In this document: positions 8,156 to 62,261 of the stretch, piece by piece | Layout of the letters: every line of letters begins with the position of its first letter | How positions within the stretch are numbered: the first letter of the stretch is position 1 | Assembly (NCBI GenBank): GCA_017429505.1 | Contig: JAFROW010000009.1 | Coordinates: forward strand, 103,337 to 167,336 | DNA length: 64,000 nucleotides | Direction: 5' to 3' | Origin: Clostridia bacterium | GTDB lineage: Bacteria > Bacillota > Clostridia > TANB77 > CAG-508 | The notes under the pieces: generated by a model | What the model saw: the letters and a program-made list of their open reading frames with translations, nothing else | Databases searched by the model: none | What the model was told of the DNA's origin: nothing | Position numbers and translations under genes: made by a program

Positions 8156-8192
8156 ATCTTTTTATACCTCCATTCTATACTTTTATAATATT

Positions 8193-8234
8193 CTAAAAAA
8201 TTTGAAAGCACCCCAAAAAATTTAGTGTGCTTTC
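8193..8234 (-). terminator. Terminator candidate after rnhA
   Basis: GAAAGCAC (8204-8211) pairs with GTGCTTTC (8227-8234). A T-run follows on the minus strand. Confidence 0.5.
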
Positions 8235-8245
8235 ATAGTTTTCAT

Positions 8246-8680
8246 TTATAGCTTTTCAATTTCGGCTCTTGCCAATTCATCACACCTATTATTTAGCTCA
8301 ACGTCACTATGTCCTTTAACTTTGTTAAAATTTACTTTGTGCTTTTTAGTTAGCCTGTATATTTCTTGCCAAATTTCTTTATTTTTAACTTCTTTGCCAT
8401 CAGCTGTTTTCCAACCTTTTTTTATCCAGTTATAAATCCACCCCTGATTAAAGGCATTAACAGAATATGCACTATCACTATAAAGCTCAACCTCACATTC
8501 TGTTTTCAATGCTTTTAATGCTTCCAAAATTGCTGTTAATTCCATTATGTTATTTGTAGTATCTTTACATCCACCTGAAATTTCTTTTTTATGTTCTCCA
8601 TAAATTAGCACAGCTGCCCATCCTCCTGGACCAGGATTTCCTGAACACGCTCCATCAGTATAAATCGTAACTTTTTGCAT
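8246..8680 (-). CDS. rnhA: Ribonuclease HI
   Basis: [30 protein letters not shown] and [14 protein letters not shown] are the classic RNase H type 1 catalytic blocks. Length is 144 aa. Confidence 0.9.
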
Positions 8681-45772: not shown

Positions 45773-46632
45773 GGTCAATCGGGACGTCCTTTTTTGACCA
45801 CTATTTTTTATTAATCAACCTTAGCGTTTCCCTAGGAATATTCAATTCAACAGCAATTTTTCTTAGTGAAAGCCCATAATCTTTATTTAAAGTAGCTATT
45901 AAGTCTTTTAATAACTCTTTATTTCTTTTTGGGTTAATAATATCCAAATTGTTTTTTTCCATAAATATTTTGATATATTCTTTATATGCATTTTCTATTT
46001 CCTCTTCATCATCTATAAAAATGAAAGTTTCACTTGTTTTTTCTGGTATCGGTTTATAATTTGACCATTTGTATTCATCTGGACGACTACAAATTCCTGC
46101 TTTTACCGGATTATTATAAATATACTTTATACAATTATATAATTGTGAATCATTATAAATTCCTTCTGACCTATATCTATCTCTAAACACATATCCTACT
46201 CTTTTATATTTTTTATTATAATATCTGGCATATTTTGAATTTAACCTTAACATATAGTTACTTAATTCCTCTATTTTTTCTACTTTTGCTAACATATGTG
46301 TATGGTTATTCATTATACAGTATGCAATTATTTTTATTTTATATTCTTTCAATAATTCATACATTATTTTTATATAATATTTTATATCCTCTTCGTATTC
46401 AAAAATATATGTTTTGTTTATCCCTTGTGTCATAATATGAAGATATGACGTTTTTATATAGTTCCTTGGAAATCTTGGCATTATTTTTTCTCCTTTTTTA
46501 GAAATAATTTTTTAAAATAAAAAATAATATGATATAAATTTTTGTAATTATATCATATTATTTTTGAAATTTTTGTCAAAATTTGTAATCTAGTTCAAAT
46601 TTTTGGGTCAAAAAAGGACGTCCCGATTGACC
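45773..46632. mobile_element. RAYT/IS200-like Y1 transposase gene flanked by perfect 27-bp inverted repeats
   Basis: GGTCAATCGGGACGTCCTTTTTTGACC (45773-45799) is exactly the reverse complement of 46606-46632. Each copy is itself a small hairpin (GGTCAA...TTGACC) around the GGACGTCC palindrome. Confidence 0.75.
45801..46481 (-). CDS. IS200/REP-associated type Y1 (HUH) transposase with a C-terminal HTH-like tail
   Basis: YLHIMTQGINKTYIF, the HUH motif (CIMNNHTHML), the catalytic Tyr region (GYVFRDRYRSE) and NPVKAGI are all present. The C-terminus LSLRKIAVELNIPRETL looks like an HTH. Confidence 0.8.
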   Translation of the reverse strand: MPRFPRNYIKTSYLHIMTQGINKTYIFEYEEDIKYYIKIMYELLKEYKIKIIAYCIMNNHTHMLAKVEKIEELSNYMLRLNSKYARYYNKKYKRVGYVFRDRYRSEGIYNDSQLYNCIKYIYNNPVKAGICSRPDEYKWSNYKPIPEKTSETFIFIDDEEEIENAYKEYIKIFMEKNNLDIINPKRNKELLKDLIATLNKDYGLSLRKIAVELNIPRETLRLINKK

Positions 46633-49850: not shown

Positions 49851-50073
49851 TGACCTTCGGGCTATGAGGTCTAGTTGAGAGGTTTATGTAATTTAGTGAA
49901 ATCAAGGGTTTTAGCTGATTTATCAATGAAAATTGGGGAAATGAAATTTAGAACATTTGTGTGATTTTTTGTACTTTTTTGAGAATTTTTTCCCCAACTT
50001 TTCCCCAATTATTTTTAGCAAATATTGGAAATCAAAATGGGAAACCTGAAAATTTATTTTGGAGGTTTTGATT

Positions 50074-50430
50074 ATGAATAAAATTACTTATCACAAAGAA
50101 GGAGATTATTTGATTCCTGATTTAATTATGGATAATTCTTGTGAGGATTATCATATTGGAAAATATGGCAGATTAAGGTTAAATTATATTAAAAATTATA
50201 AAAGAGGCTTATATACCGAATTAATGATAAATGGAACACTATCTAAACATCTTGCTGATATTGAAAATGCAGCTAATGAAAGAATTTGTTTAATAGTTAA
50301 ACAATTAGCTGAATCAGAAAATGTTAATGAAGATTTAAAAAGCAATAATCAACTTGCTTGGGTTCAAGCTATGAATAACATTAAAAATCGTGCTGAAGAA
50401 ATTGCTTATAATGAGATTATTTATGTGTAG
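50074..50430 (+). CDS. TnpV-like transposon-associated protein
   Basis: ITYHKEGDYLIPDL...GKYGRLRLNYIKNYKRGLYTELMINGTL..HL..I...A...QLAWVQAMNNIKNRAEEI..NEIIY matches the TnpV family (Tn4451) as I remember it. The ATG at 50074 follows a GGAGG RBS. Confidence 0.6.
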   Translation: MNKITYHKEGDYLIPDLIMDNSCEDYHIGKYGRLRLNYIKNYKRGLYTELMINGTLSKHLADIENAANERICLIVKQLAESENVNEDLKSNNQLAWVQAMNNIKNRAEEIAYNEIIYV

Positions 50431-50444
50431 GAGGATTCAAAGAT

Positions 50445-50735
50445 ATGAGTTTTAGAGAAGTTAATGATGATATTTTAAAAGAGATTTGGGAATATAGAGA
50501 TCAAACTGAATTTGCATACTTAACTAAAGAAGATAAAAAACATATGATTTATTTTGATGAGATTACAGATAAAATTTTAAACAGCATTCCTAAACAAAAT
50601 AGGAAATTTGTTCAAAAACAACTTAATAAACTTGATGATAATTTTTCTGATTATGTTGGATATTGGAGTGAAAAATATTATAGAAACGGATTTTGTGATG
50701 GAGCTGAAATGATTATTGGATGTTTAGAGAAATAA
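50445..50735 (+). CDS. 96-aa conserved hypothetical protein coupled to the TnpV-like gene
   Basis: An AGGAGG RBS is present. By eye it is almost 90 percent identical to the product of 55849-56139. No motif was recognised. Confidence 0.6.
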   Translation: MSFREVNDDILKEIWEYRDQTEFAYLTKEDKKHMIYFDEITDKILNSIPKQNRKFVQKQLNKLDDNFSDYVGYWSEKYYRNGFCDGAEMIIGCLEK

Positions 50736-50751
50736 TCATTTAAAATAAATG

Positions 50752-50793
50752 GTGGGATTTTTGAGAATTTATCAATTTTCTCAAAAATCCCAC
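50752..50793. terminator. Bidirectional terminator hairpin
   Basis: GTGGGATTTTTGAGAA (50752-50767) pairs with TTCTCAAAAATCCCAC (50778-50793), between convergent genes. Confidence 0.7.
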
Positions 50794-50807
50794 TACTTTT
50801 TAAATAA

Positions 50808-51611
50808 TTATTCTATTTCAATTATTCCTAAATCAACAAAAGATATCAATAATAAACTGAGCATATATCGGTTATTTAATGATTGTTCATAATTAAAAAT
50901 ATCTGTATTAAATTCTCTAGTATTATCTAAATTGATTTCCTTTACATTAATCTTTTCTAAAGAATTTATTAATTCCAAAAAAGCATTTGATAATGTATCA
51001 ATTGACATTTTATTATTTAAATATTTTTTATCATCAATATATTCCTTTAATTTTTTATTTTCAAAATCAAACCTTTTATCAAAATTACTCATATCATTTT
51101 CAAAATTAGAAATTATAAATGTTTCAATTGCTGGATAACTTAACAATAACATTCCACCAATACTATTAAATTTGTTTTCAACATCATCATTTGGCTCTCT
51201 AGAATTTGTATAATGTTCTGTTAATTCTTTTATTATGTTGGTATCTTCTTTTCTATCCGCATCAAAAACATAATATATTGCACTATTTCTATATTCGTAA
51301 TCTAAACCACTATCCCTTAACAACTCAATTTGTTTATCTATAAACTCTGTATTGTTAATAGTATCAATATTACTAGTTTCAGAATTTATAATTACAACTT
51401 GTGAATAAACATTATCTCTTTTAGAAAATTGTCTATATTTCTTTTTTCCATTTCTGTTTAAGCTTATAACTTCTTCATATCCTAGAATATTTAAAAATAT
51501 ATTTGCAATTAAATTAATTTCTCTAGTTGCCCCTTCTACAATATATAAAACTTTTCCAATATTCTTATCTTGATTAAATTTAAATTTCTTATTTAATATT
51601 TGGTAATCCAT
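50808..51611 (-). CDS. TOPRIM-like (DUF4435/RloB class) putative nuclease partner of the ABC ATPase
   Basis: VLYIVEGATRE is an EG-type TOPRIM Glu. YYVFDADRKED is DxD-like, and LLLSYPAIETFI is also present. The ATG at 51611 has a GGAG RBS and overlaps the end of the ATPase gene by 23 nt. Confidence 0.55.
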   Translation of the reverse strand: MDYQILNKKFKFNQDKNIGKVLYIVEGATREINLIANIFLNILGYEEVISLNRNGKKKYRQFSKRDNVYSQVVIINSETSNIDTINNTEFIDKQIELLRDSGLDYEYRNSAIYYVFDADRKEDTNIIKELTEHYTNSREPNDDVENKFNSIGGMLLLSYPAIETFIISNFENDMSNFDKRFDFENKKLKEYIDDKKYLNNKMSIDTLSNAFLELINSLEKINVKEINLDNTREFNTDIFNYEQSLNNRYMLSLLLISFVDLGIIEIE

Positions 51612-52725
51612 TAAACACTCCACTTAAATACATTTTTTCTAAATTTTGAGCTTCTCTTGGTTTACTATCAGACACTCTGTATAGCTTACTTCCTTTTCCA
51701 ATAATATAATCTACTGTATAAATTTGGTCTGGTCTTAATAATGTATTGGTTAATAAATTAGTTGAATGTGATACAATAAACATTTGAGATTTTTCTGATT
51801 TTTCCATAAAATATTTAATTATTTTTTCTTCTAATTGATTATGAAACGCACTACTAAATTCATCTATTATTACCATGCAGTTCTTCTTTATAGCTTGTAA
51901 AATTTGTGGTAATACTTCGACCAAAGTTTGATTTCCCAAAGATTCTAGTGTCATTGGCAAACCTATATCCATATCTTTTCTCAATATAATTACTTCTTTT
52001 CTATTTTGAAAATTGAATTGCATTAATTTATTTTTATATCCACTAACATAATCAACTGTTTGATTATAATTAATTAATTTTAAGAATTCATTAAATTCTT
52101 CTTTTCCATTATTTTCAAAATAATTTCTTGTTAATTTATCTTGATTTGCACATAATACAAATTTATTTGCCTGATCAATATAAACAGAATCTTTTAAAAA
52201 GTCAAACCATTCTTGTAATACATCATTATCAATGAATCTGTTTTCAAAATATACTGCTCTTAATGCTGATTGATTTTTTTGAACATTATCAATCTGCATT
52301 TTTTTGCCTTCCTTATTTGTATATTCTCCATTACTATTAATTCTAACTAAAATTTGTTTACCATCTTGCGTTAATTCTTCTTTTAATATAGTACTATTAT
52401 CTGTTTCAATTGCATATTTAATATATGACTCTTTTATTTTAAATTCATATATTAATTCCATTCTTTCTTTCAAATCAGAATAAAAACTCTTATATTCAAA
52501 TAATTGAACATCTGCTTGCCATACTAATAATTCTAATAAAAATCTAATTGCTCTAATTACGTTCGTTTTTCCCGTTGCATTTCCACCTACAAATATTGCT
52601 CCTTTTAAAATATTATCACTTGTTTTATTTTCATTTGACAATATTTCATATCCAGTTGCATTTAAATCAATCTCAGTTTTATCAACAAATGATTTAAAAT
52701 TTTTCATAGATAATTTTACTAACAT
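51589..52725 (-). CDS. ABC-type (AAA_15/AAA_21-like) ATPase, AriA/AbiLi class
   Basis: Walker A is GGNATGKTN, Walker B/D-loop is MVIIDEFSSAFH and the H-loop is IVSHSTNLL. The N-terminus (LSMKNFKSF) is typical of SMC/ABC-like defence ATPases. Confidence 0.8.
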   Translation of the reverse strand: MLVKLSMKNFKSFVDKTEIDLNATGYEILSNENKTSDNILKGAIFVGGNATGKTNVIRAIRFLLELLVWQADVQLFEYKSFYSDLKERMELIYEFKIKESYIKYAIETDNSTILKEELTQDGKQILVRINSNGEYTNKEGKKMQIDNVQKNQSALRAVYFENRFIDNDVLQEWFDFLKDSVYIDQANKFVLCANQDKLTRNYFENNGKEEFNEFLKLINYNQTVDYVSGYKNKLMQFNFQNRKEVIILRKDMDIGLPMTLESLGNQTLVEVLPQILQAIKKNCMVIIDEFSSAFHNQLEEKIIKYFMEKSEKSQMFIVSHSTNLLTNTLLRPDQIYTVDYIIGKGSKLYRVSDSKPREAQNLEKMYLSGVFNGLPNIK

Positions 52726-52872
52726 AATAGTATCCTCCTTACTTTATTATATTTTATCATAAATAATAATAAAATGCAATTTTTTTACACATTTTTATTT
52801 TTATTGTGTAATTTTTTTACAGTTATAATATATTATGTATTAAAATAAAAAAATAATACTACTAATTTTAAT

Positions 52873-53640
52873 TTATTCAAATATACTTTCAAATTCTAGA
52901 GGCACAATATCCTCATATAATAGAACATATTGTGAATTAACTTGTCTATAATCATGATAATGTCCAAAATACCATTTTTTAAATTCACATTTTTTCATAA
53001 TGTTTTGAAAATAATCTGTTAAATAATCTTTTTCAAATTCTCCTGCTCCTAATATCGTTTGAATACTTGTAGGACAACAATGTGAAATAATATAATCAAC
53101 TTTATAATTTACTTTTTCTAAATTTTTTATTCCATTTTTCATTTCTTCTTCAGTTGGTAATTCTAAATCCCACCATGAATACTCTCTTATTCTAAAATAT
53201 GCTCCTCTTTTTCGATATTCATATATCCTTTCTTCTTCGTCAAGATTTAAAATTCCATCTTGAATATCGTGAGATTTTGCACCACCAAATACAAAGAATT
53301 TTTTACCATCAATATCAAATATTTCCCCACGCATTAAATGCAAAACGGAATCTCTAATTTTGTGTACTTTTCCTCCATGCCATTCTTCTACTAGATAATC
53401 ATTACATAATCTTGTAAAATTTTCATGATTTCCATCTACAAATAGTATCGTGAAGTTTTTACTATTTAACCAGTCTAATGCTTCTTTTTCGCGATGGCTC
53501 TCTTCTTCAAATGTCCATACTCCTCCAAAATCACCACATATTATTACGTAATCATTTTTTGTCATTTCAGATTGTATTGGAAATTGCTCTTCTGTAAATC
53601 TTGTGAAATCTGAATGTGTATCTCCTGTTATATAAATCAT
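52873..53640 (-). CDS. Calcineurin-like metallophosphoesterase
   Basis: IYITGDTHSD, ICGDFGG, VDGNHENF and GHYH are the ordered phosphoesterase metal-binding motifs. Confidence 0.85.
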   Translation of the reverse strand: MIYITGDTHSDFTRFTEEQFPIQSEMTKNDYVIICGDFGGVWTFEEESHREKEALDWLNSKNFTILFVDGNHENFTRLCNDYLVEEWHGGKVHKIRDSVLHLMRGEIFDIDGKKFFVFGGAKSHDIQDGILNLDEEERIYEYRKRGAYFRIREYSWWDLELPTEEEMKNGIKNLEKVNYKVDYIISHCCPTSIQTILGAGEFEKDYLTDYFQNIMKKCEFKKWYFGHYHDYRQVNSQYVLLYEDIVPLEFESIFE

Positions 53641-53655
53641 AGCTTACCTCCAATA

Positions 53656-54744
53656 TTATTTCTTTTCTTCCACCTTTTTCAATAATTCTTTTAAGCTAAT
53701 TGGCTTAAAACCTATCACATCAACTGAAACATTTATATGTAATTTTTCTGAATATAAATTTTCAGGATATTCCATTTCATTTGTTTTTGGATTTACTTTA
53801 TGTAATGGATTATTATGAATATGTCCATGAACATTCACATATCCATTAGGAATTTCTGTATCTTTTAAAGGCTTATGAGATAAAATTAGTCTTTCATTAT
53901 TTAGCTTTAATGGATTTTCAGGTATAAATCCAAATCCTACATTTCTGAAAAATTCTTTAGATTTTTTATCATGATTTCCTCTTATTAAAAACTTTTTTCC
54001 TTTTAATTTTGGTATCAATTCTTTCATATCACTTTCACTTGTTAATGCTACATCTCCTAAATGAAAAATAGTATCGAAATCAGTAACTGTATTATTCCAA
54101 TTTTCTATCAAAACTCTATTCATTTCTGCTACATCTTTAAATGGTCTATTGCAATATTTAATAATATTTTTATGATTAAAATGTGTATCTGAAATAAAAT
54201 ATGTTTTTGCATTTTTTAATCCCTTATAGTATTCAAATATATCAGTAACTTCTTTTCCATCAAACCATCTTTTGTAATCATCTTTTTCGTTTTCTTTCCA
54301 CCACTCAAATTTTTCTTTAATTTTATTTCTTATTTTGCTAGTATCTATATTTGAATTTTCTTCAATTGCAAACAATACATCTATATTGTAACTTCCGCAT
54401 ATTAAAAAATCATAGTTTTTTATTTCATCATATCCATACTTATCTTTAACCTTTTCTATTTTTTTATCGTAAGAAATATATAAATAATCATCTTTAAATA
54501 AATGATTCTCCTTTATATATGTATAATATAAATCTTTTACGCCTGATGTTTTTACAAATCCTGTCATATACCATATTGTTCTACTTCGGATCTCTGTATA
54601 ATCTTTTGGCAAATCTTCTTTTCTGATTTTTGTTGGATATCTACCTTTAGAATACAAGAATTCATTTTCTGTATCAATTGTGTTTCTCCAATTTTTTCTA
54701 TCAAATTTTCCTTTTGTATACCAATTAGAGTTTATTCTTGACAT
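53656..54744 (-). CDS. Two-domain protein: unknown N-terminal domain (about 180 aa) plus a C-terminal metallophosphoesterase
   Basis: The C-terminal half has FISDTHFNH, HLGDVAL, IRGNHDKK, LSHKP and VHGHIHNN. I recognised nothing in the N-terminal half. Confidence 0.8.
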   Translation of the reverse strand: MSRINSNWYTKGKFDRKNWRNTIDTENEFLYSKGRYPTKIRKEDLPKDYTEIRSRTIWYMTGFVKTSGVKDLYYTYIKENHLFKDDYLYISYDKKIEKVKDKYGYDEIKNYDFLICGSYNIDVLFAIEENSNIDTSKIRNKIKEKFEWWKENEKDDYKRWFDGKEVTDIFEYYKGLKNAKTYFISDTHFNHKNIIKYCNRPFKDVAEMNRVLIENWNNTVTDFDTIFHLGDVALTSESDMKELIPKLKGKKFLIRGNHDKKSKEFFRNVGFGFIPENPLKLNNERLILSHKPLKDTEIPNGYVNVHGHIHNNPLHKVNPKTNEMEYPENLYSEKLHINVSVDVIGFKPISLKELLKKVEEKK

Positions 54745-54854
54745 ATTGCTATTCCTCCTTTTTATAATAGTATTTGTTCTTTATTTTATCTTTTATGTTT
54801 GTTTATCGAACATAATATTGTAAAATATTAGGCAGATTTTTCTGCCTTAATTAA

Positions 54855-55166
54855 TTATTTATTTTCTAAATTTCTTTTAAAATCAATAAATTCCAGCACT
54901 TCTTTTTGCGATTTATTAGATAATTCATCAAATGTTCTTGAAAATTTTGCAATTCTTTTTTCTTTATCTTCTCCTGTATATAATTCTTCCATAGATAATC
55001 CATATATCTTTGAAAAAAAATATAATTCCTCTGCTGTAATTTTTCGCGTTCCATTCTCAATATTTGTTATTACTAAACGTCTTACTCCTAGCATTTTTGC
55101 TATCTCTTCTTGTGTAAATCTTGTTTGTTCTCTTAACTTTTTTAATCTTCTTCCTAAATTTTCCAT
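54855..55166 (-). CDS. XRE family helix-turn-helix transcriptional regulator
   Basis: LGRRLKKLREQTRFTQEEIAKMLGVRRLVITNIENGTRKITAEELYFFSKIYG is the canonical HTH_3 pattern. Confidence 0.85.
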   Translation of the reverse strand: MENLGRRLKKLREQTRFTQEEIAKMLGVRRLVITNIENGTRKITAEELYFFSKIYGLSMEELYTGEDKEKRIAKFSRTFDELSNKSQKEVLEFIDFKRNLENK

Positions 55167-55477
55167 AATTACTTTCCTTTACTTGATATAAGTAGTTTAT
55201 CATATAAAGTTTAAATTTGCAACATTTTTGTTTATTTTTTTAAATTTCATTTTTTAATAAACCTTCGGGTTATGAGAAGTTACTGTAATTTAGTGAAATT
55301 AAGAGTTTCGACTGATTTATCAATGAAAATTGGGGAAGATTATTTCGAACATTTGTGTCTTTTAAGGTCACTTTGTGAGAATTTCTTCATCAACTATTAC
55401 CCAATGAATTATACATAGCTTTTTAGAGGTTAGTTTTTGAAATAAAAACAACCAAAATTTATACAAGGAGGCTTACT

Positions 55478-55834
55478 ATGATTAATATAACTTATCACAA
55501 AGAAGGAGATTATTTAATTCCTGATTTGATTATGGAGAAATCCAATTCAACATGCAATGTTGGAAAATATGGGCATTTAAGAAATAACTTTTTAAAAGAA
55601 CATAAAAGAGGTTTATATACTGAATTAATGATTAATGGAACTTTGACTGATCATTTAATAGATATTGATAAAACTGCAACTGCAAGAGTTAATACTATAA
55701 TTAATAAACTTGCTAAAGCAGAAAATGTGAATGAAGATTTAAAAAGTCGTGAGCAACTTGCTTGGGTTCAAGCTATGAATAATATTAAAAACAGAGCTGA
55801 AGAAATTGTTTTTAATGAATTAATATATGTGTAG
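55478..55834 (+). CDS. TnpV-like transposon-associated protein (second copy)
   Basis: By eye about 70 percent identical to the 50074-50430 product. A GGAGG RBS is present. Confidence 0.6.
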   Translation: MINITYHKEGDYLIPDLIMEKSNSTCNVGKYGHLRNNFLKEHKRGLYTELMINGTLTDHLIDIDKTATARVNTIINKLAKAENVNEDLKSREQLAWVQAMNNIKNRAEEIVFNELIYV

Positions 55835-55848
55835 GAGGAGAAAAAAAG

Positions 55849-56139
55849 ATGAGTTTTAGAGAGGTAAATGATGATATTTTAAAAGAGTTTTGGGAATATA
55901 GAGACCAAACTGAATTTGCATTTATGACTAAAGAGGATAAAAAGCATATGATTTATTTTGATGAGATTACTGATAAAATTTTAAATAACATTCCTAAACA
56001 GAATAGGAAGTTTGTGCAACAGCAACTAAATAAACTTGATGATAATTTTTCTGAGTATGTTGGATATTGGAGTGAGAAGTATTATAGAAATGGGTTTTGT
56101 GATGGAGTGCAGATGATGTGTGGGTGTTTTGAGGAATAG
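55849..56139 (+). CDS. 96-aa conserved hypothetical protein (second copy)
   Basis: It is a near-identical paralogue of the 50445-50735 product, with an AGGAGGAG RBS. Confidence 0.6.
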   Translation: MSFREVNDDILKEFWEYRDQTEFAFMTKEDKKHMIYFDEITDKILNNIPKQNRKFVQQQLNKLDDNFSEYVGYWSEKYYRNGFCDGVQMMCGCFEE

Positions 56140-56141
56140 TA

Positions 56142-56168
56142 AAAGGCGAGTTAGTTCTCGCCTTTTTC
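56142..56168 (+). terminator. Rho-independent terminator
   Basis: AAAGGCGAG-TTAGTT-CTCGCCTTT, followed by TTC. Confidence 0.7.
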
Positions 56169-56169
56169 A

Positions 56170-56745
56170 TTATTCTATATTTTTCATACAATAGTTTAGT
56201 AAAGTATCCATATTAGTTTTATCAGAAACTTCAAATTTTTTTAATAGTTTTTTTACCTGTTGTATATCTGTTTCTCCCTTATTTGTAGGAAATAATTCTT
56301 CATATATTTTTCCCTTTTCTCTGTCATTAGGTATCTTGCTTATTAATTTTAAGTCATACAAAACATGGTCAAAATTCTTATCATTCCATATAGGAACAAT
56401 ATATGGAGCTAACCAATGTTTTTGAAACATTTCTCCTGTTTTATATTTTTCAATTTTTTCTTGTGTAGTATCATCGAGATCCATTATTGGCATTATAGAA
56501 AAATTTTTAAATACTCCTTTTTCTTCCTCTATGATATAATTTGTTTTAAATGCTCTTTTATTCTTAAATATAGTATTTCCAAAAATAGTGTTTAAACTGT
56601 CTATTTGAATACTAGTTTTTCCGTTTCTTTGTGAATATATTTCTATTGGTAAATGTAAATTACTCTTTATATGCTCTGCAAATAAAAACTCACTCTTTCC
56701 ATGTGCAATTATAATGCCTTTACAGTAGTTAAGCTTTTTTGACAT
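56170..56745 (-). CDS. Short TOPRIM-like/DUF4276- or RloB-like partner of the second ABC ATPase
   Basis: GIIIAHGKSEFLFAEHI sits where these families have (V/C)EG..(T/S)E. PIMDLDD is DxD-like. The gene overlaps the ATPase stop by 17 nt. Confidence 0.5.
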   Translation of the reverse strand: MSKKLNYCKGIIIAHGKSEFLFAEHIKSNLHLPIEIYSQRNGKTSIQIDSLNTIFGNTIFKNKRAFKTNYIIEEEKGVFKNFSIMPIMDLDDTTQEKIEKYKTGEMFQKHWLAPYIVPIWNDKNFDHVLYDLKLISKIPNDREKGKIYEELFPTNKGETDIQQVKKLLKKFEVSDKTNMDTLLNYCMKNIE

Positions 56746-58096
56746 TAGATATATCCTCTTTTTCTTTTGAATCTTCTAGAGCATATTTTATTTCTTCAAA
56801 ATCTACATATTCTGTTGTTGGAATTCCACCAAATAAACCTTTAAAATATAAATCACGAGCATTATTATTCTTTTGTATTGTAATACCATAATCCTTAATA
56901 GAATTAATCTCTTTGTTTCCTTCATAATCTGTTGATAATATATATATACATTCTTTAGGCAATATTTCTAATAATAATGTATTATGTGTTGTAATAATTA
57001 ATTGACCATTTATTTCATCTTTAATTGACATTATTATGTTTTTCATTAATAAATCATGTATACCATTGTCTATTTCATCAATTATTACTGTTTCTCCCAT
57101 CATTGCGCCTATTATTGTATCAAACTCATCTACAATTTTTCGTGTTCCTTCAGACTCTAAATCAATTGAAATAGATTTTAGTTTTCCACCTATCATTTTA
57201 TTAAAATATAATTCATAGTAAACTTTTTCATCATTATCTTCAATTTTATATTCAACACTTTTTATATCTGCATAAGCTTGTGTAAAAAAGATATTTAATA
57301 CCTCTTCATATTTTTTTATAATATTTACTTTATCTTTTCTTATATTTCCAGATTTTAAATCTATCAATTTGGATTGCTTCATTATATTATCTGGCATTAG
57401 CTTAAAATCCCACATATGAACATGTATTGTCATCGATAAAAATTTATCTATTATATTAAATATTTTTTGTGAAGTATTAGTAATTACATAATCTTGATTT
57501 TTTTCTGCTGTTTCGTAAAATAGTAAAGATAAAAATGAATATTTTCCCCAATATTTATCAATATTGTCAATTAATTCCTTTTTATATTTTTCATTATTAA
57601 AAATGTTCTTGTTCAACTCTTTTTTTATTTCTTTTTCTTCTTTGCATATTTTAAAATAAAAAGCTTTTTGTTTTACTGCAAAATAATATAATTTTTCTTC
57701 AACGATTTCTGTATTGAACCTAATATAATAATATCCCTCTATATCATTTATTTTAAAACCGTATTCTATTTCTGTATCTTCTTTTTCATTTAATGTTCTA
57801 TATTCCTCTAAATTTAAAGATAATTGCCAGATTTTTTTTAATTCCACAGGAATGCTATCTATAAATTTTTTTTGTAATTCAAAATATTCTTTCGGTAGTT
57901 TATTAAGTGCATTGTCAATACTTTTTGATATTGTAAGCTGTTGAAGAAATTTAAATAATTCAACTACATTTGTTTTTCCACTGCCATTCTCGCCATATAT
58001 TGATATAAAATCATTTGTTATTTTTTGAGTCCTTTTCAAATTAAACTTAATATTTTTTAGAGATTTGAAATTTTTTGCTTTAACATATGTGAACAT
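56729..58096 (-). CDS. ABC-type (AAA_15/AAA_21-like) ATPase with a long coiled insertion
   Basis: Walker A is GENGSGKTN, Walker B is VIIDEIDNGIHD and the H-loop is IITTHNTLLLE. The N-terminus reads KAKNFKSLKN. Confidence 0.8.
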   Translation of the reverse strand: MFTYVKAKNFKSLKNIKFNLKRTQKITNDFISIYGENGSGKTNVVELFKFLQQLTISKSIDNALNKLPKEYFELQKKFIDSIPVELKKIWQLSLNLEEYRTLNEKEDTEIEYGFKINDIEGYYYIRFNTEIVEEKLYYFAVKQKAFYFKICKEEKEIKKELNKNIFNNEKYKKELIDNIDKYWGKYSFLSLLFYETAEKNQDYVITNTSQKIFNIIDKFLSMTIHVHMWDFKLMPDNIMKQSKLIDLKSGNIRKDKVNIIKKYEEVLNIFFTQAYADIKSVEYKIEDNDEKVYYELYFNKMIGGKLKSISIDLESEGTRKIVDEFDTIIGAMMGETVIIDEIDNGIHDLLMKNIIMSIKDEINGQLIITTHNTLLLEILPKECIYILSTDYEGNKEINSIKDYGITIQKNNNARDLYFKGLFGGIPTTEYVDFEEIKYALEDSKEKEDISNVKKA

Positions 58097-58278: not shown

Positions 58279-59706
58279 TTATATTATATCATTTATTGTA
58301 TTTAATATATTTATTACTTTTTTGTCATCAAATTCGTTATCTTTAATTAGATTTTTATAGTTATTGTTATCGCTTATAATAAATTTAATGAATTCACTAC
58401 ATATATTATTATCATCAAATACTTTTAACCAATTTTCATAATCAATAGAAGCATCTCCATTCATATAAAAAAAACTTCTCATCTCATTATTTATTATTTT
58501 ATATGAAGAGAATCTTACTAATAATTTATGTATATTATATTGTTCACCATTAGTATATTTAATATTACATTTCTTCTCATACTCTGTATATCTGCCTTGC
58601 TTTTTTAATCCATTTTTATCATAATAATAGAATATAATATTTTCATAGATTTTTTCTTTATCATCTCTTATTATGTATTTATACTCATCACTATAATATA
58701 CATTTATTAATATTATATATAATATTAATAAAACATTTCTGTTATCCTCTATATCAATTCCTTTATCTTTTAAATATTCTTTCATAAAATAATACTTTCT
58801 CAATATTTTTTTTATGTGTCTAGCATTTGTAAAATGTAATGTTTCAAAAAATCTCAAAATCAATTCTGACTCTTTTTCTTCCAAGTCAGTAATTTCCGAA
58901 ATATATTTTAGGAAATTCTGAGGTTGCATATTATTTATTAATTCAAATGTAATAGAAAATATTTTTTCTAAATATTCATCAGCTTTGTTATAATCATTAT
59001 TATATTTATTTTTTAAAGCTAGTGTAACTGCTGTTTTATCAACACCAATTATGAATATTATATTTTTATTAATTGATAAAAGCAATTTTATTGCAGAAAT
59101 TAATGTTATAATATTATCTGATTCGCATCTATCTAAATCATCTAAAAATACAACTAATCTCTTATCATTATTTAATTTAACACTTTTAAAAACACTTTCG
59201 AATTCTTCAATTTTCTCCCACAAACATTTTTTATCGTTAATATCATTTTTTATTTTTTCACCTTGCTTTTCTGCTTCATCCATTGCTTCTCCAGGTTTAA
59301 TATTAAAGATTCCAAGGTTTAACTCTACTCCTTTTGCTAAACTCTTAAATATTCCATATGCATTATTTAAAACATTACTGCCTTTTTCTTTTATTTTATC
59401 AAAGAAATTGTCTTTTCCTATGTATTTGAATAGAGAAAAAGCTAAATTATCATCTTTTTCATATTTCCATGTATCAAACCACATAACATTAAATTTTCCT
59501 GAATCCAAATTATTATATATTGTCTTCATTAAGCAACTTTTCCCACTTCCCCATGATCCATATATTGCTATTAAATTATTATTTTCTAAAATTTCTTTAT
59601 TACTATCTAATTCCAAAAAATCACATATTGATTTTGCTTTTTGGTAAGTTCCAAATATGTCATTATCCTTATTTATTTCCTTTACATTTTCTATTAAATT
59701 GTCCAT
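58279..59706 (-). CDS. KAP family P-loop NTPase
   Basis: IAIYGSWGSGKSCL is Walker A and MWFDTWKYEKDDN follows it. LVVFLDDLDRCESDNII is the KAP-type Walker B (DDLDRC). Confidence 0.8.
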   Translation of the reverse strand: MDNLIENVKEINKDNDIFGTYQKAKSICDFLELDSNKEILENNNLIAIYGSWGSGKSCLMKTIYNNLDSGKFNVMWFDTWKYEKDDNLAFSLFKYIGKDNFFDKIKEKGSNVLNNAYGIFKSLAKGVELNLGIFNIKPGEAMDEAEKQGEKIKNDINDKKCLWEKIEEFESVFKSVKLNNDKRLVVFLDDLDRCESDNIITLISAIKLLLSINKNIIFIIGVDKTAVTLALKNKYNNDYNKADEYLEKIFSITFELINNMQPQNFLKYISEITDLEEKESELILRFFETLHFTNARHIKKILRKYYFMKEYLKDKGIDIEDNRNVLLILYIILINVYYSDEYKYIIRDDKEKIYENIIFYYYDKNGLKKQGRYTEYEKKCNIKYTNGEQYNIHKLLVRFSSYKIINNEMRSFFYMNGDASIDYENWLKVFDDNNICSEFIKFIISDNNNYKNLIKDNEFDDKKVINILNTINDII

Positions 59707-59793: not shown

Positions 59794-59949
59794 TTATTTG
59801 TTTTTAAAATCTTGATAACATTTGTCAACAAATTGCTTTAATATGTCTTTCTGTATATCTGACAAATTATACTTTTTATCTTCATCAATAAACTTTTTAT
59901 CCATTTCTGCTATAAATTTTACTACTGGCAATAATTCTTCTTTATTCAT
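59794..59949 (-). CDS. 51-aa acidic/Lys-rich peptide, translationally coupled to the nuclease-helicase gene
   Basis: The ATG at 59949 has a GAGAGGAA RBS and overlaps the upstream stop by 8 nt (ATGAATAA). Confidence 0.45.
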   Translation of the reverse strand: MNKEELLPVVKFIAEMDKKFIDEDKKYNLSDIQKDILKQFVDKCYQDFKNK

Positions 59950-61918
59950 ACTTATATTCCTCTCTTTCTTCAGCAACCATTAAGACATCATCATTTTCTT
60001 CTTCATCAATTGAATATGTAATTTCATTTTTTTGATTTAATCTATTCTTTAAATATTCTGATAAATTTTTGTCTGTACAATAAATGTAACAACCCTTTTG
60101 TCCTCTTGTCATTAATGTTCTATATGTATTTTTTATAATTTCATCTGCTATTCTATTAGCTTTTTCAGAGTTTTCTCTACTTAACTTGCTAATTCCTTTT
60201 ATTGATTGGTCTGTTTTAGCTCTTTTTGTAACATCTGTAATTATCTTACCATTCTCGTACCTTAAGTCATCTCCAATAATTACACCAATATAATCAAATT
60301 CAAGTCCTTGAGCAGTATGTATACATCCAATTTCATTTACTGATTCAGCATCTATTGCCCATGTTTGGCTATTACCTAAATTCCAGCTCATTGCAAAATT
60401 GTATTCTGGAATAGTTATATCATATACATCTGATTTGTTTTTTCCATCTTTTATCCAATTCCAACAATATCCTGCTAATAATCTAGCTTTATTATTTATT
60501 TTATTCTTTTCAAATATTAAATCTCTTACTTCATTTGGATTATCACATACTCTAATATCATAATCTAAATCAAAACCATCACTATTGGCTGTTCTTCTTA
60601 TTTCTAATACATCATCTAACCATGCAATATATCCATCTGAACCATTACATCTAAACTGTGATTCCAATTCCATTATTTTTGATTCTGCATTAGCTTGTTT
60701 TATATATTTTTGTATTTCATCAATACTTCCTATATCCTTTAAGGTTACTCTTTGTGATTCATCTATGAAAAATATTGAAAATTTAGAAGCTTTAATAATC
60801 TCTTTTATTTGATTTTCTCCTAAGTTTTGAAACATTCCAGATTTCGCATTTAATCTATGTGCTTCATCTACAATTAAAACATCAAATTCATTTTCTGCAG
60901 ATTCTACAAATGAACCCGAACCTTTAAATAAATTATTAATTCTTGTTTTCCTAAAATCTCCACTCAATTTGGTTGCATATACACTTCTTGGTGCTGCATT
61001 TTTTGTTACATATGAGCACACCATGTTTTCATTAGTTAGTTTTACTAAAAGATTAATTGCTAAAACTGATTTTCCTGTTCCTGGTCCTCCCTTAACAACT
61101 AAAACTCTTTTATTTCCATCTCTATATGATTTTCTTGCCATTTCTAATGCTGTTTCGTAAACAAGTTTTTGATCATCTATCATTACAAATTCTTCATTAC
61201 CTTTTAACATGCTTGATAATGCATCTTGTAATGATTTAGAAGGCCTTATTTTTCCATTTTCAATCATATATAGTGTTTCTTTATCATCACCATATTTAAT
61301 ATATTTGTTTATGAAATCTCTTAATTTTTCAACATCACCCTTTATAAATGCTGGTGCTTTGTCTAGGTAGTATTTATAATTATCTGCTAATAGAGTTGGA
61401 GGTGTTACTGTTAAATAATTATGAAGATATGCACATGGATGTAAATCTATTTGTCTTTCTTGCACTGTTTCATTATAGTCTTCTATTGTCGTTACATAAG
61501 ACCAAGCTTGGTATGAAGGATGTGCTACTTCTCTTAATGCATGTCCTGTATATGCTTGTACAATTCCATCTTTTCCTTCAACAATATCAGCCTCTGCCCA
61601 TTGTTTTAATTCAACAATAATAGCAGTATTTTTAAGTTTTCCATCTTTACCTGTAATTATAAAGTCTACTCTTTTAGATGTATTAGGAATTTTAAATTCA
61701 ATTGCTATTCCTACATTTCCAGGTATATTATTATCAATTAAAACTTTCATCATGTATTGCATAGAGTTATTCCATGCTTTTCTTTCATTTTGAGATGTAT
61801 GATATCCCATCTTTTCATAAAATTTTCTATCTATATTTTCTTCAATTCTGTCTTGTACAACATCTTCTACAAATAGTTGCTTTGTTGCTTCATATACTAT
61901 CATAATAATTGCCCCCAT
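59942..61918 (-). CDS. Nuclease-helicase: N-terminal PD-ExK fold plus a DUF2075/Schlafen-like P-loop helicase (Nhi-like layout)
   Basis: RVDFIITGKD...AIIVELKQW is PD-ExK-like. VVKGGPGTGKSV is Walker A and VLIVDEAHRL is a DEAH box. GLEFDYIGVIIG and RGQKGCYIYC form a tail typical of DUF2075. The start may be ATG 61903 (MIVYEATKQ), which has a GGGGG RBS. Confidence 0.75.
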   Translation of the reverse strand: MGAIIMIVYEATKQLFVEDVVQDRIEENIDRKFYEKMGYHTSQNERKAWNNSMQYMMKVLIDNNIPGNVGIAIEFKIPNTSKRVDFIITGKDGKLKNTAIIVELKQWAEADIVEGKDGIVQAYTGHALREVAHPSYQAWSYVTTIEDYNETVQERQIDLHPCAYLHNYLTVTPPTLLADNYKYYLDKAPAFIKGDVEKLRDFINKYIKYGDDKETLYMIENGKIRPSKSLQDALSSMLKGNEEFVMIDDQKLVYETALEMARKSYRDGNKRVLVVKGGPGTGKSVLAINLLVKLTNENMVCSYVTKNAAPRSVYATKLSGDFRKTRINNLFKGSGSFVESAENEFDVLIVDEAHRLNAKSGMFQNLGENQIKEIIKASKFSIFFIDESQRVTLKDIGSIDEIQKYIKQANAESKIMELESQFRCNGSDGYIAWLDDVLEIRRTANSDGFDLDYDIRVCDNPNEVRDLIFEKNKINNKARLLAGYCWNWIKDGKNKSDVYDITIPEYNFAMSWNLGNSQTWAIDAESVNEIGCIHTAQGLEFDYIGVIIGDDLRYENGKIITDVTKRAKTDQSIKGISKLSRENSEKANRIADEIIKNTYRTLMTRGQKGCYIYCTDKNLSEYLKNRLNQKNEITYSIDEEENDDVLMVAEEREEYKYE

Positions 61919-61930
61919 TAATTATTATTT

Positions 61931-62248
61931 TTATAGTTTGTTATATTTGGTACTAACTCCCTTAGCTTTTTCTACTGGATATTTTTTTCTAGTTTTCTCT
62001 AATTTTTTCAATATTATTTCTTCAGGATCCACTCCTAGTTTCATAGCCATTTGAATGCAATATGTAAATACATCAGCCAATTCTTCACATACTTCTTCTT
62101 TATTATAATCATTATTCCATTGGAAACACTCTAATAGTTCACCAGCTTCAATAGAAATTGATTTAGCTAAGTTTTCTGGAGAATGGAATTGATTCCAATC
62201 TCTTTCTTGGTTAAATTGTTTTATTTCTTTTATTAATTTTTCCAACAC
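61931..62248 (-). CDS. MazG-like all-alpha nucleoside triphosphate pyrophosphohydrolase
   Basis: RDWNQFHSPENLAKSISIEAGELLECFQW and EELADVFTYCIQMA give the ExxE...ExxD metal-binding pattern of small MazG/dCTPase-like proteins. Confidence 0.8.
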   Translation of the reverse strand: MLEKLIKEIKQFNQERDWNQFHSPENLAKSISIEAGELLECFQWNNDYNKEEVCEELADVFTYCIQMAMKLGVDPEEIILKKLEKTRKKYPVEKAKGVSTKYNKL

Positions 62249-62261
62249 AAATTCTCCTTTT

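Follow-up and report, generated by a model that had tools for sequence, protein, structure and literature searches.

Two diverged direct repeats lie at positions 49853-50735 and 55261-56139 of the window (the whole 64-kb stretch of DNA analysed). They are spaced 5.4 kb apart, have an identical gene order and each comprise, as an earlier note on this DNA had described, a leader, a gene for a TnpV protein and a gene for a 96-residue protein (p96), all on the forward strand. The TnpV genes (50074..50430 and 55478..55834), previously termed TnpV-like, can be firmly assigned (PF14198, E ~1e-40; 2e-40 and 3e-40, respectively). The p96 genes (50445..50735 and 55849..56139) belong to a small gene family without annotation. 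A terminator hairpin follows each copy, at 50751..50793, where it is of the bidirectional type and marks the module end of copy 1, and at 56141..56166, 3' of p96 copy 2. Between the copies, the leaders (49869..50073 and 55277..55477, both forward) are identical at 80.5% of aligned columns (68% with gaps counted), the TnpV coding sequences at 78% of nucleotides (68% of residues by tblastn) and the p96 coding sequences at 88% of nucleotides (84/96 residues), with 24 of the 34 p96 differences falling on third codon positions. Leader conservation is therefore about that of the TnpV coding sequence; the 100-nt flanks on either side of the repeats reach ~66% over aligned columns, which is not above a forced alignment of AT-rich DNA. 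The leader blocks quoted earlier as identical are found in both copies, i.e. GTAATTTAGTGAAAT at 49888 and 55285, CTGATTTATCAATGAAAATTGGGGAA at 49915 and 55312, and GAACATTTGTGT at 49951 and 55347, and the inverted repeat AATTGGGGAA (49931-49940)/TTCCCCAATT (50001-50010) is intact only in copy 1, copy 2 having a degraded form.

Both copies face a convergent gene pair on the reverse strand. The cargo of the first unit (50808..52725) consists of an AbiLi-type ABC/AAA_21 ATPase gene (51589-52725) and a gene for a 271-residue partner (50808-51623), a pair also present in the related locus L082; that of the second (56170..58096) consists of an AbiLi-type ATPase gene (56729-58096) and a gene for a 191-residue partner (56170-56745). 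The AbiLi model of PADLOC recognises both ATPases (E 7e-52 and 5e-44), and this upholds the ATPase half of the proposed ABC-ATPase/TOPRIM pairing; the TOPRIM-like half is unconfirmed, with neither small partner matching any family in Pfam, PADLOC or NCBIfam. The arrangement is like that of AbiL (AbiLi ATPase plus AbiLii) in its large genes and in the overlapping small gene after each, but is unlike it in the small partners, for which AbiLii, RloB and the Toprim families gave no match. The pairs are, as had been thought, highly diverged: identity between the ATPases is only 27%, and this over the P-loop region, beyond which the two pairs are unrelated.

The same layout recurs elsewhere. The first gene of at least 100 residues past p96 is on the opposite strand in 72/72 related loci, and the 72 proteins encoded match 319 different PADLOC families. 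Using a systematic sample of 10 and a cut-off of E <= 1e-5, we found a defence-family match for 7/10 first-cargo genes, compared with 1/10 ordinary window genes taken as a control; adding L001 (AbiEii) brings the count to 8/11. The gene after p96 is usually, by prediction, a defence gene, in agreement with the earlier proposal of a constant module beside variable, mostly defence cargo. Near-identical modules face differing cargo across genomes, the break coming directly after the terminator hairpin; homology of copy 1 with other genomes stops just past the hairpin at 50751..50793.

Behind its cargo, unit 1 (49853-55260, 5.4 kb) carries two metallophosphoesterase genes (52873..54744, reverse strand; clusters c3 and c19 in L001, L003, L007 and L082), which recur as the right-hand backbone of mini-units that differ in the cargo between this pair and p96, and ends with a gene for an Xre-type HTH protein (54855..55166, reverse). 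It has no integrase and no P arm. Unit 2 starts at 55261 and encodes, again on the reverse strand, a KAP NTPase (58279-59706), an SLFN/DUF2075 helicase (59942-61918), a MazG-like protein (61931-62248) and a DUF8370/PDC-M36A protein (62262-63701); it runs past the window end, with genes for a relaxase, an IstB-like ATPase, Phage_rep_org_N, HTH_17 and DUF6076 proteins. The window, taken together with 9.7 kb past it, contains no integrase, P arm or tRNA gene.

Each leader is preceded by a near-invariant core of 15/16 nt, (A)CCTTCGGGTTATGAG, present as ACCTTCGGGCTATGAG at 49853..49868 and as ACCTTCGGGTTATGAG at 55261..55276, the latter forming the junction of units 1 and 2. The core matches initiator tRNA-fMet in reverse complement, from the anticodon loop through the 3' stem strand to the variable loop (as seen against the intact tRNA genes in L044 and L087), and is derived from that gene. 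Across loci 14-16 of 16 positions match, with a majority frequency of 0.98 versus 0.47-0.53 on both sides, and the DNA upstream is unrelated from locus to locus. Beside the core, 15 loci retain an intact T-arm and acceptor strand and another 15 have decayed ones; a further 43 lack both, the core remaining intact there although every trace of the tRNA T-arm is lost.

Leader 1 contains direct repeats, TTTTCCCCAA, at 49988-49997 and 49999-50008, i.e. with an 11-nt period, and one inverted copy at 49931-49940; these are the sole C-rich 11-nt-period repeats of this type within the 64-kb window. An 11-nt-period direct repeat is present in 68/77 leaders, at +133 to +153 from the core (compared with 14% in a control in which the pair could lie anywhere within 260 nt); its position is fixed and its sequence varies by subfamily (TCCCCAA, TTTTACCC, TGTCCCCA, TGTGCCCA, TTCGCCAC). 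Repeat pairs of the same type also lie between a tyrosine integrase gene (PF14659 + PF00589) and the core in L035, L039, L049, L082 and L087. A metagenome scan for CCCCAA, an 80-110 nt gap and the intact middle of tRNA-fMet returned 44 loci. In 36 of these, a gene of the integrase family (55-88% identity) immediately precedes the match on the same strand, and an intact, ARAGORN-called tRNA-Met(CAT) comes next on the opposite strand.

Three-way comparison locates the breakpoints. In L082, the integrase, P arm and ...TTATGAG are followed by the leader, TnpV, p96 and the AbiL cargo that is also found in the window; in L087, the same integrase side runs to ...GTTAT and then gives way to unrelated DNA, an intact tRNA-fMet lying 4 kb on; in the window, unrelated DNA precedes the core and leader. 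A complete element is present in L109, spanning 13.06 kb between two direct cores and having ATCCCCAATTTCTCCCCAA on both arms. It comprises the core, leader, p96, SF1 helicase, Dcm methylase, NikA/MobC and Phage_rep_org_N, and then an HTH_17/Tn916-Xis-like gene, DUF6076, integrase, P arm and intact tRNA-fMet. The HTH_17 protein is more likely than p96 or TnpV to be the excisionase.

On these grounds the repeat very probably forms the attL-side terminus of a genomic island that is integrative and mobilisable and uses a tyrosine integrase to enter the initiator tRNA-fMet gene at its anticodon-arm sequence; the island family is widespread among uncultured low-GC gut Clostridia. In the orientation of the window, such an element would begin with the core and the leader (P' arm with two arm-type repeats, promoter and RBS), and continue with the optional TnpV gene, p96, the terminator hairpin and variable, oppositely oriented defence cargo; relaxase/MobC, replication genes, the HTH_17 excisionase-like gene, DUF6076 and more cargo would follow, and the integrase, a P arm with the same repeats, and the tRNA 3' half plus core joined to the remaining tRNA would complete it. 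The integrase would bind the arm-type repeats, strand exchange inside the 15-nt core would give integration and excision, and later elements may insert at cores left by earlier ones, so building arrays. We accordingly read leader 1 as the P'-type arm, and the leader in general as one arm of a predicted att site, not as a structured RNA; it probably also holds the TnpV/p96 promoter and RBS. Unit 1 would be a decayed unit, onto which unit 2, a larger element of a sister lineage, has apparently been stacked. The window copies might still be mobile, or may be immobile relics, because no integrase, P arm or tRNA lies nearby.

Williams is said to have set out, in 2002, sublocation classes of tRNA-gene integration that include the anticodon loop. 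As generally described, lambda-type attP sites and anticodon-loop integration have in common with the present sites a short core equal to the tRNA segment from the anticodon loop on, direct arm-type repeats that lie, on either arm, ~100-140 nt from the core and are spaced by about one helical turn, and an integrase gene beside one arm. The present repeats differ in being putative integrase sites. For an arm-binding domain at the integrase N terminus there is no more than a hint (PF14657, E 0.11, below threshold), and the 14 nt straight after the core, where one would expect a second core-type integrase site, vary more across subfamilies than any other part of the leader; both points count against the att reading. 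So do the degradation of the arm repeats in leader 2 to TTCATCAAC/TTACCCAAT at 55386-55405, the inversion of the decayed tRNA copy in L044 relative to the intact tRNA, and the absence of a T-arm or P arm to the left of either window core, which leaves two attL-type half sites and no attL/attR pair.

Of the alternatives considered, the one that survives best, though we think it unlikely, is that core, leader and p96 form the recombination handle of an integron-like system, in which defence cassettes that lack an integrase and are bounded by cores would be taken up, reshuffled and released in trans. On that reading p96 would be an essential factor, acting in cis or in trans, and the units would not be simply the debris of whole elements. 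It would fit the recurrence of integrase-less units between direct cores (5.4 kb in the window, 5.6 kb in L003, 12.4 kb in the L019/L027 contig), the intact core in the 43 loci without any T-arm trace, the purifying selection on p96 and its retention in nearly every unit, and the change of cargo beyond the hairpin of near-identical modules. However, most loci have one core per 16 kb and not dense arrays, units between cores bear attL-type arms only, and p96 has no recognisable DNA-binding or catalytic fold; the complete conventional element accounts for the same parts, and decay with accretion is a documented route to such structures (PMC5704250).

The earlier suggestion that the leader is a functional RNA or a DNA site divides along these lines: the core and arm repeats favour a DNA recombination site, and the RNA option found no support. 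A structured cis-regulatory RNA controlling TnpV/p96 (a riboswitch, an attenuator or an antisense to the tRNA-fMet anticodon arm) might be suspected from the leader's conservation, which is close to that of the TnpV coding sequence, from its position immediately 5' of the genes on the same strand and, were it transcribed, from the perfect complementarity of its first 16 nt to the initiator tRNA anticodon arm. Yet there was no Rfam match at gathering or relaxed thresholds, and the proposed covariation check was negative, RNAalifold on 47 leaders giving no consensus structure (-1.5 kcal/mol, 3 pairs, no compensatory change). The 10-bp AATTGGGGAA/TTCCCCAATT helix, which is confined to the window's own subfamily, pairs in 56% of cells compared with 51% in shuffles, its G-C pairs never covarying. 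The conserved elements are instead direct repeats with the period of the DNA helix, they recur across the core beside the integrase, where they would be outside any common transcript, and a conserved promoter for transcription of the core is precluded by the lack of relatedness between loci in the DNA that precedes it. We hence regard an RNA as highly improbable and attribute leader conservation to protein-binding recombination DNA rather than to an RNA fold. That conservation may be partly regulatory, because L097 keeps a leader without a core, as a divergent promoter region beside HTH_17 and next to two divergent genes; this locus speaks for an RNA and counts against the att reading.

A further reading, of similarly very little likelihood, places the oriT of a mobilisable element at or within the leader. 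It draws on the relaxase and NikA/MobC proteins that the family encodes, on TnpV, which is typical of mobilisable transposons, and on the blocks between core and arm repeats, to which no role is assigned. Against it, the leader sits at the att end, with the relaxase and MobC genes 5-8 kb away in L109 and L081; it is in fixed register to the tRNA core and arm repeats, has no conserved inverted repeat of the nic-flanking kind by RNAalifold or the helix test, and is retained in units without mobilisation genes.

Least probable of all is the tandem duplication that the earlier note had assumed, with later divergence in this genome and leader likeness through shared ancestry: although the repeats are direct, in the same order and each followed by an ATPase and a small gene, copy 1 is 91-95% identical to modules of 7 other genomes and copy 2 is 91% identical to those of 2 others (nearest relatives, L006 and L009), compared with only 78% between the neighbours, an 11-nt deletion after the core separates leader 2 from leader 1 and is common to L006 and L009, the ATPase pairs are unrelated beyond the P-loop, and L082 has the cargo and backbone of unit 1 without unit 2 behind, its homology spanning 50034 to 55254 and ending ~7 nt short of core 2. 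Since each copy is nearer to modules of other species-level genomes than to its neighbour, the two are best read as separate lineages of the module, borne by two stacked elements.

As an integrative mobilisable island, the element resembles the IMEs that target tRNA genes through tyrosine integrases, e.g. IME_Sag2603_tRNALys and NBU1 at tRNA-Leu, for which tandem accretion and decay into cis-mobilisable elements have been reported (PMC5704250). In both, the integrase adjoins the tRNA that it targets, each end bears a direct repeat made of a stretch of that tRNA, relaxase/MobC genes occur with no full conjugation apparatus in the stretches seen here, a replisome-organiser gene is accompanied by an excisionase-like HTH_17 gene, the cargo varies and tandem arrays include decayed relatives. 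Here, in contrast, the target is initiator tRNA-fMet with crossover in the anticodon arm, the attL end always carries p96, the hosts are uncultured low-GC gut Clostridia and mobility is putative; moreover, the L082 and L087 lineages carry a decayed tRNA 3' half and so could not restore the tRNA gene. Unit 1 is also comparable to the CIMEs formed by site-specific accretion, as with ICESt1/ICESt3 of Streptococcus thermophilus (cited in PMC5704250), in having lost integrase and transfer genes and in sitting between two cores, stacked on a larger relative. A CIME, however, keeps full attL and attR, whereas the left core of unit 1 has a P' arm and its right border is the attL-type core of the next element without a P arm, which makes cis-mobilisation of unit 1 doubtful.

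The island is a familiar kind of element in poorly studied gut bacteria, related elements carrying different anti-phage genes. Hotspots for defence cargo in mobile elements are the subject of a general survey (PMC10201445). The variable position past p96 is defined on one side by p96 and the terminator. Other defence hotspots are those of P4-like satellites, SXT ICEs and tycheposons; as far as their usual descriptions go, they share with the present family a conserved mobile backbone with a fixed spot swapping very diverse anti-phage systems, and arrays with partial tRNA repeats and integrase-less remnants, and differ from it in that one-sided boundary and in integrase family, target and hosts.

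What stays constant in the module is the core with the leader and p96. TnpV is optional, sitting between leader and p96 in only 31/80 loci, a point missed in the first reading of the window; our guess is that p96 and TnpV are accessory or regulatory proteins of the element.

The repeated segment at 49853-50735 (copy 1) and 55261-56139 (copy 2) is the attL end, comprising a core, the P' arm (the leader side of the core) and small genes, of a family of tRNA-fMet-targeting IMEs with defence cargo. A repeat search and pairwise alignment of the copies bore out the proposal of the earlier note that the two are diverged direct repeats, each consisting of a non-coding leader of ~205-220 nt followed by a TnpV gene, a 96-aa gene (p96) and a hairpin. 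The leaders are 80.5% identical over aligned columns, the TnpV genes 78% at the nucleotide and 68% at the amino acid level, and the p96 genes 88% at the nucleotide level, with 84 of 96 residues shared and third codon positions accounting for 24 of the 34 differences; the 100-nt flanks reach ~66% over aligned columns, i.e. background for AT-rich DNA. The identical leader blocks and the inverted repeat AATTGGGGAA/TTCCCCAATT are present where the note had placed them, and its TnpV assignment holds for both copies (PF14198, E ~1e-40; 137.8 and 137.2 bits against a Pfam gathering cutoff of 27), the matches spanning positions 1-111 of the 111-position profile. The further proposal that the module was duplicated in place is contradicted by comparison with other genomes: the two modules are 78% identical to one another, whereas copy 1 is 91-95% identical to modules of seven other genomes and copy 2 91% identical to those of two. 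Since each copy is nearer to foreign modules than to its neighbour, two related elements are stacked here.

All aligned leaders begin with (A)CCTTCGGGTTATGAG, the reverse complement of CTCATAA-CCCGA-AGGT of tRNA-Met, i.e. of the anticodon loop (CAT), the 3' half of the anticodon stem and the variable loop. The cores at 49853 and 55261 are 16 nt long and are reverse complements of these same parts of tRNA-fMet. Two related loci, L044 and L087 (L numbers denote loci in other genomes or metagenome contigs), carry intact tRNA copies with a mismatch at C1·A72 and an anticodon stem closed by three G-C pairs, which are marks of the bacterial initiator tRNA. When the T-arm/acceptor 3' strand upstream of the core was scored over 73 loci, it was found to be intact in 15 (26-29 of 29 matches), partly decayed in another 15 (16-25 of 29) and unrecognisable in 43 (<16 of 29). 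The core itself has 14-16 of 16 matches in all 73, a conservation that is partly preset because cores were searched with ≤2 mismatches, a filter passed by 69 of 80 loci. The majority-base frequency is 0.98 within the core and drops to 0.53 immediately upstream and 0.47 immediately downstream; an invariant block with such sharp limits, flanked on one side by unrelated DNA, has the appearance of a site-specific recombination core. Across subfamilies the leader is least conserved in the 14 nt 3' of the core (columns 17-30; 49869-49882 in the window), which are conserved inside each subfamily; a second core-type integrase site would be expected there.

The earlier note had offered two explanations for leader conservation, a functional RNA or a DNA site, of which the second stands: the leader is tRNA-derived recombination DNA, as conserved as the genes that it adjoins. 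At L097 (9690-10001) the leader lacks the tRNA-derived core and extends almost to a divergent HTH_17 (excisionase-like) gene, stopping no more than ~25 nt short of its start codon, so that part of the leader may be a shared regulatory region. A sigma-70 promoter scan gave no enrichment over shuffles and no leader site above noise, promoter placement in the leader being by eye. The functional RNA fared less well, with no Rfam match at gathering or relaxed thresholds beyond chance matches to the terminator hairpin. Neither RNAalifold nor explicit pair counting over 47 leaders gave a consensus structure or conserved base pairs with compensatory changes, and the specific helix AATTGGGGAA/TTCCCCAATT put forward in the note was likewise unsupported by pair counting. 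That the core acts as an antisense RNA to the initiator tRNA was rejected, since loci share no similarity upstream of the core and integrase-tRNA junctions contain this core as well.

In 68 of 77 leaders there is a direct repeat with an 11-nt period at +133 to +153 relative to the core, any such pair being present in 14% of random 260-nt windows from the same loci. Its position is constant and its sequence varies by subfamily, with TCCCCAA as the window type and TTTTACCC, TGTCCCCA, TGTGCCCA/TGAGCCCA or TTCGCCAC elsewhere. Judged by sequence, the TTTTCCCCAA repeats are putative integrase arm-type sites. The pair at 49988-50008 is the sole C-rich 11-nt-period repeat in the 64-kb window; that of copy 2 has decayed to TTCATCAAC/TTACCCAAT. 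An inverted copy at 49931-49940 forms a third site of the motif, and another subfamily has its inverted copy downstream of the repeat pair, a difference in placement that suits protein-binding sites and not an RNA stem. Repeats of the same period are also found on the integrase side of the core, and the Arm-DNA-bind_4 match in the integrase is sub-threshold (E 0.11).

In L035, L039 and L049 a protein of 395-400 aa, relatives of which have Phage_int_SAM_3 and Phage_integrase domains, ends ~210-270 nt before the core, with a similar 11-nt-period pair between its gene and the tRNA 3' half; a full tRNA 3' half adjoins the core in 15 related loci. The 330-kb contig L082 carries, in order, integrase, ATCCCCAATTTCTCCCCAATT, a decayed T-arm (the part of the tRNA 3' half left of the core), CCTTAGAGTTATGAG, leader, TnpV and p96, followed by the ATPase pair, metallophosphoesterase and HTH_19 genes that are also found in unit 1 of the window (49853-55260). 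L087 shares this integrase side as far as ...CCTTAGAGTTAT, beyond which its DNA is unrelated, with an intact tRNA-fMet in the predicted orientation 4 kb further on; in the window it is the DNA before the core that is unrelated, and the leader follows the core. All three configurations thus have their breakpoint within the same few bases. At L035, L039, L049 and L082 the contiguous integrase-core-leader junctions could be tandem junctions or circles.

If the leader is one end of an element, the other is predicted to consist of an integrase, the P arm (the integrase side of the core) and an intact tRNA-fMet on the opposite strand. A scan of metagenome contigs for CCCCAA, 80-110 nt and an uninterrupted tRNA middle returned 44 loci, in 36 of which a member of the integrase family (55-88% identical to the L082 integrase) lies directly upstream on the same strand and ARAGORN called an intact tRNA-Met(CAT). 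In six of the remaining eight the upstream sequence is too short to judge; that of L112 and L116 is long enough and shows no integrase. L109 is a complete element, with 13.06 kb between two direct cores. Its left end has a core beside a decayed T-arm, a leader with GATCCCCAATTTCTCCCCAATT, and p96; then come an SF1 helicase, a Dcm methylase and 226-aa and 381-aa genes without assigned function, next NikA/MobC, Phage_rep_org_N, HTH_17 (with weak similarity to Tn916 Xis) and DUF6076, then two unassigned genes, and lastly the integrase, TCATCCCCAATTTCTCCCCAA and an intact tRNA-fMet.

The window units are less complete. Unit 1 has no backbone, integrase or mobilisation genes; it is homologous to L082 over 50034-55254, a stretch that ends ~7 nt before core 2. 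Unit 2, which begins at 55261, continues into the 9.7 kb by which L081 extends the window DNA, where it carries a relaxase (PF03432), an IstB-like ATPase, Phage_rep_org_N, HTH_17, DUF6076 and further cargo; no core, integrase or tRNA that would mark its right end is present in that 9.7 kb, and the window itself has neither a family integrase (tblastn) nor a tRNA. The core at the border is identical to the target tRNA segment, as in lambda-type tRNA-targeting elements, whereas direct cores with an integrase beside an intact tRNA occur elsewhere in the family (L109) and not in the window units. The relaxase of unit 2, just past the window end, and NikA/MobC in L082 and L109 are as in IMEs, and no type IV secretion genes are present in the stretches read (unit 2 in part, L082 and L109). 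Unit 1 is like a CIME in lying between two cores without integrase or transfer genes; a CIME, however, keeps attL and attR, whereas unit 1 has an attL-type border on either side, P arm and T-arm being absent to the left of both cores, and it is therefore no textbook CIME. Accretion and decay have been described for IMEs at tRNA genes (PMC5704250), and the stacked units of the window are a case of the same process.

The constant unit, consisting of core, leader and p96, is widespread. The protein collection holds >1,500 p96 relatives and >4,000 integrase relatives, and p96 loci number 542 in species-representative genomes; the 80 that were kept come nearly all from genomes that bear the label of uncultured gut Clostridia MAGs, and a single genome often has several copies. 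Just 31 of the 80 have TnpV between leader and p96, and an nhmmer profile built from the two window leaders places the leader directly 5' of p96 in ~50 loci, TnpV-less ones included. The tRNA-fMet IME family is large and apparently undescribed. The family, its tRNA-fMet target and p96 are new within a kind that is well known (tRNA-targeting IMEs, accretion, defence hotspots), and no new kind of mobile element is revealed.

The claim that a constant module stands beside variable cargo, largely for defence, holds across these loci. Counting from p96, the next gene of ≥100 aa has the orientation opposite to p96 in 72 of 72 loci, and the 72 first-cargo proteins matched 319 PADLOC families, among them AbiEii, PDC-S53, PD-Lambda-3, Old, PifA, SoFic, QatA and AbiLi. 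When every seventh protein was sampled, at a defence match threshold of E ≤ 1e-5, 7 of 10 matched (PDC-M11B, HamB, Ppl, AbiO/Nhi, PDC-S04/SoFic and, twice, retron RT), or 8 of 11 counting L001 (AbiEii), compared with 1 of 10 control genes from the ordinary part of the window. Modules >90% identical face unlike cargo, and inter-module homology stops at the p96 stop codon or 60-80 nt on, just beyond the terminator hairpin. A few recurring hairpin types lie within 70 nt after the p96 stop (L001-L080), including a 40-nt AATCCAAAGTTTTTTCAAAATTTTGAAAAAACTTTGGATT in ~20 loci, and copies 1 and 2 carry two different types. On the far, right-hand side, two adjacent metallophosphoesterase genes (52873-54744 in the window) bracket the cargo of mini-units, also in L001, L003, L007 and L082, the first of the two being present in 12 loci.

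In the window, the convergent gene pair reported after each copy is present at both. The large genes match the PADLOC AbiLi ATPase model (E 6.6e-52 and 4.5e-44), with similarity between the two confined to the P-loop region. The smaller partners (271 and 191 aa) had been called TOPRIM-like, a designation left unconfirmed because they match no family in Pfam, PADLOC or NCBIfam, nor each other; compared with the AbiL two-gene system, an AbiLi-type ATPase is present but an AbiLii/RloB/Toprim-type partner was not found. From ~47.6 kb to its end the window is a defence island (NERD, KAP NTPase, SLFN/DUF2075 helicase, MazG-like, PDC-M36A/DUF8370), whereas by Pfam 33-45 kb holds only ordinary metabolic and transport genes. 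Within the island, DUF8370 (PADLOC PDC-M36A), MazG-like and SLFN/DUF2075 helicase genes form a triad at 59942-63701 that recurs in L097 (3366-7108); its order is constant in the window and L097-L102 and the neighbourhoods differ, and the triad has the look of a portable candidate module for defence.

Compact, strongly conserved and always beside an attachment site, p96 is without annotated function or recognisable fold. Its AlphaFold model (pLDDT 73) consists of helices only, the C-terminal one being long; Foldseek gave no match in the PDB at E < 1, and a profile search found no sequence relatives there. DUF6809 (PF20648) scores 18 bits for copy 2, against a gathering threshold of 27, and has no match in copy 1; of 62 family members, only 4 attain E ~0.005. 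The family forms 381 clusters at 50% identity, all of 48-151 aa; no fusions to other domains occur among the cluster representatives, and no homologues were found in 72,556 plasmids, 50,697 phages or IMG/VR contigs. An excisionase-like gene, HTH_17, is already present in the elements, so that p96 need not serve as the excisionase, and we infer that it is an accessory or regulatory protein of the element. Among the papers listed for TnpV none is a study of its function, and no paper was found to mention DUF6809.

A non-coding stretch conserved like its genes is hence explained as tRNA-derived recombination DNA. It is improbable that core, leader and p96 are a self-sufficient handle by which integrase-less defence blocks are excised, captured and re-inserted in trans by the integrases of resident elements. 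If so, defence islands would undergo cassette-like exchange on an initiator-tRNA-derived site, and p96 would be either a new accessory factor of recombination or a switch, turned on only once excision has joined p96 to the integrase gene across attP. The 15-nt core, the 11-nt-period repeats and p96 together provide a search key for defence hotspots in hundreds of uncultured gut Clostridia genomes, and the numbers of p96 loci, p96 sequences and integrase relatives make the family practical for mining new anti-phage systems.

Some related loci depart from the common layout. A second subfamily (L011 6571-8288; L076 6422-8288; L012; L017) has no fMet core and the order integrase, 194-aa gene, TnpV, p96; in L011 and L076 these genes immediately follow a tRNA-Pro gene of the same orientation, a position that points to another target site for related elements. 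In L044, a complete 1.55-Mb chromosome, an intact tRNA-fMet (2197-2272) and a decayed tRNA copy with leader and p96 (7750-8288) are 5.5 kb apart and inverted, not direct, a layout beyond simple integration for which inversion between sites is possible. L019 (121-730) and L027 (6444-8001) belong to one contig, DAOOQE010000020.1, of a subfamily with arm repeats TTTCCGCC/TTTTCGCC and TTCGCCAC and with p96 at a distance of 0.6-1.5 kb from the core. An integrase-less unit is enclosed there by two full tRNA 3' halves that are 12.4 kb apart; it holds a putative AbiL-like pair, a 697-aa gene that is GmrSD-like by eye, putative type I restriction-modification-like genes and possible IS30 transposase fragments. 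At the left edge of the window's island, an IS200/Y1-transposase-like gene (45801-46481, minus strand; PF01797) lies between perfect 27-nt inverted repeats (45773-45799 and 46606-46632), and 45773-46632 looks like a RAYT or IS200-type unit.
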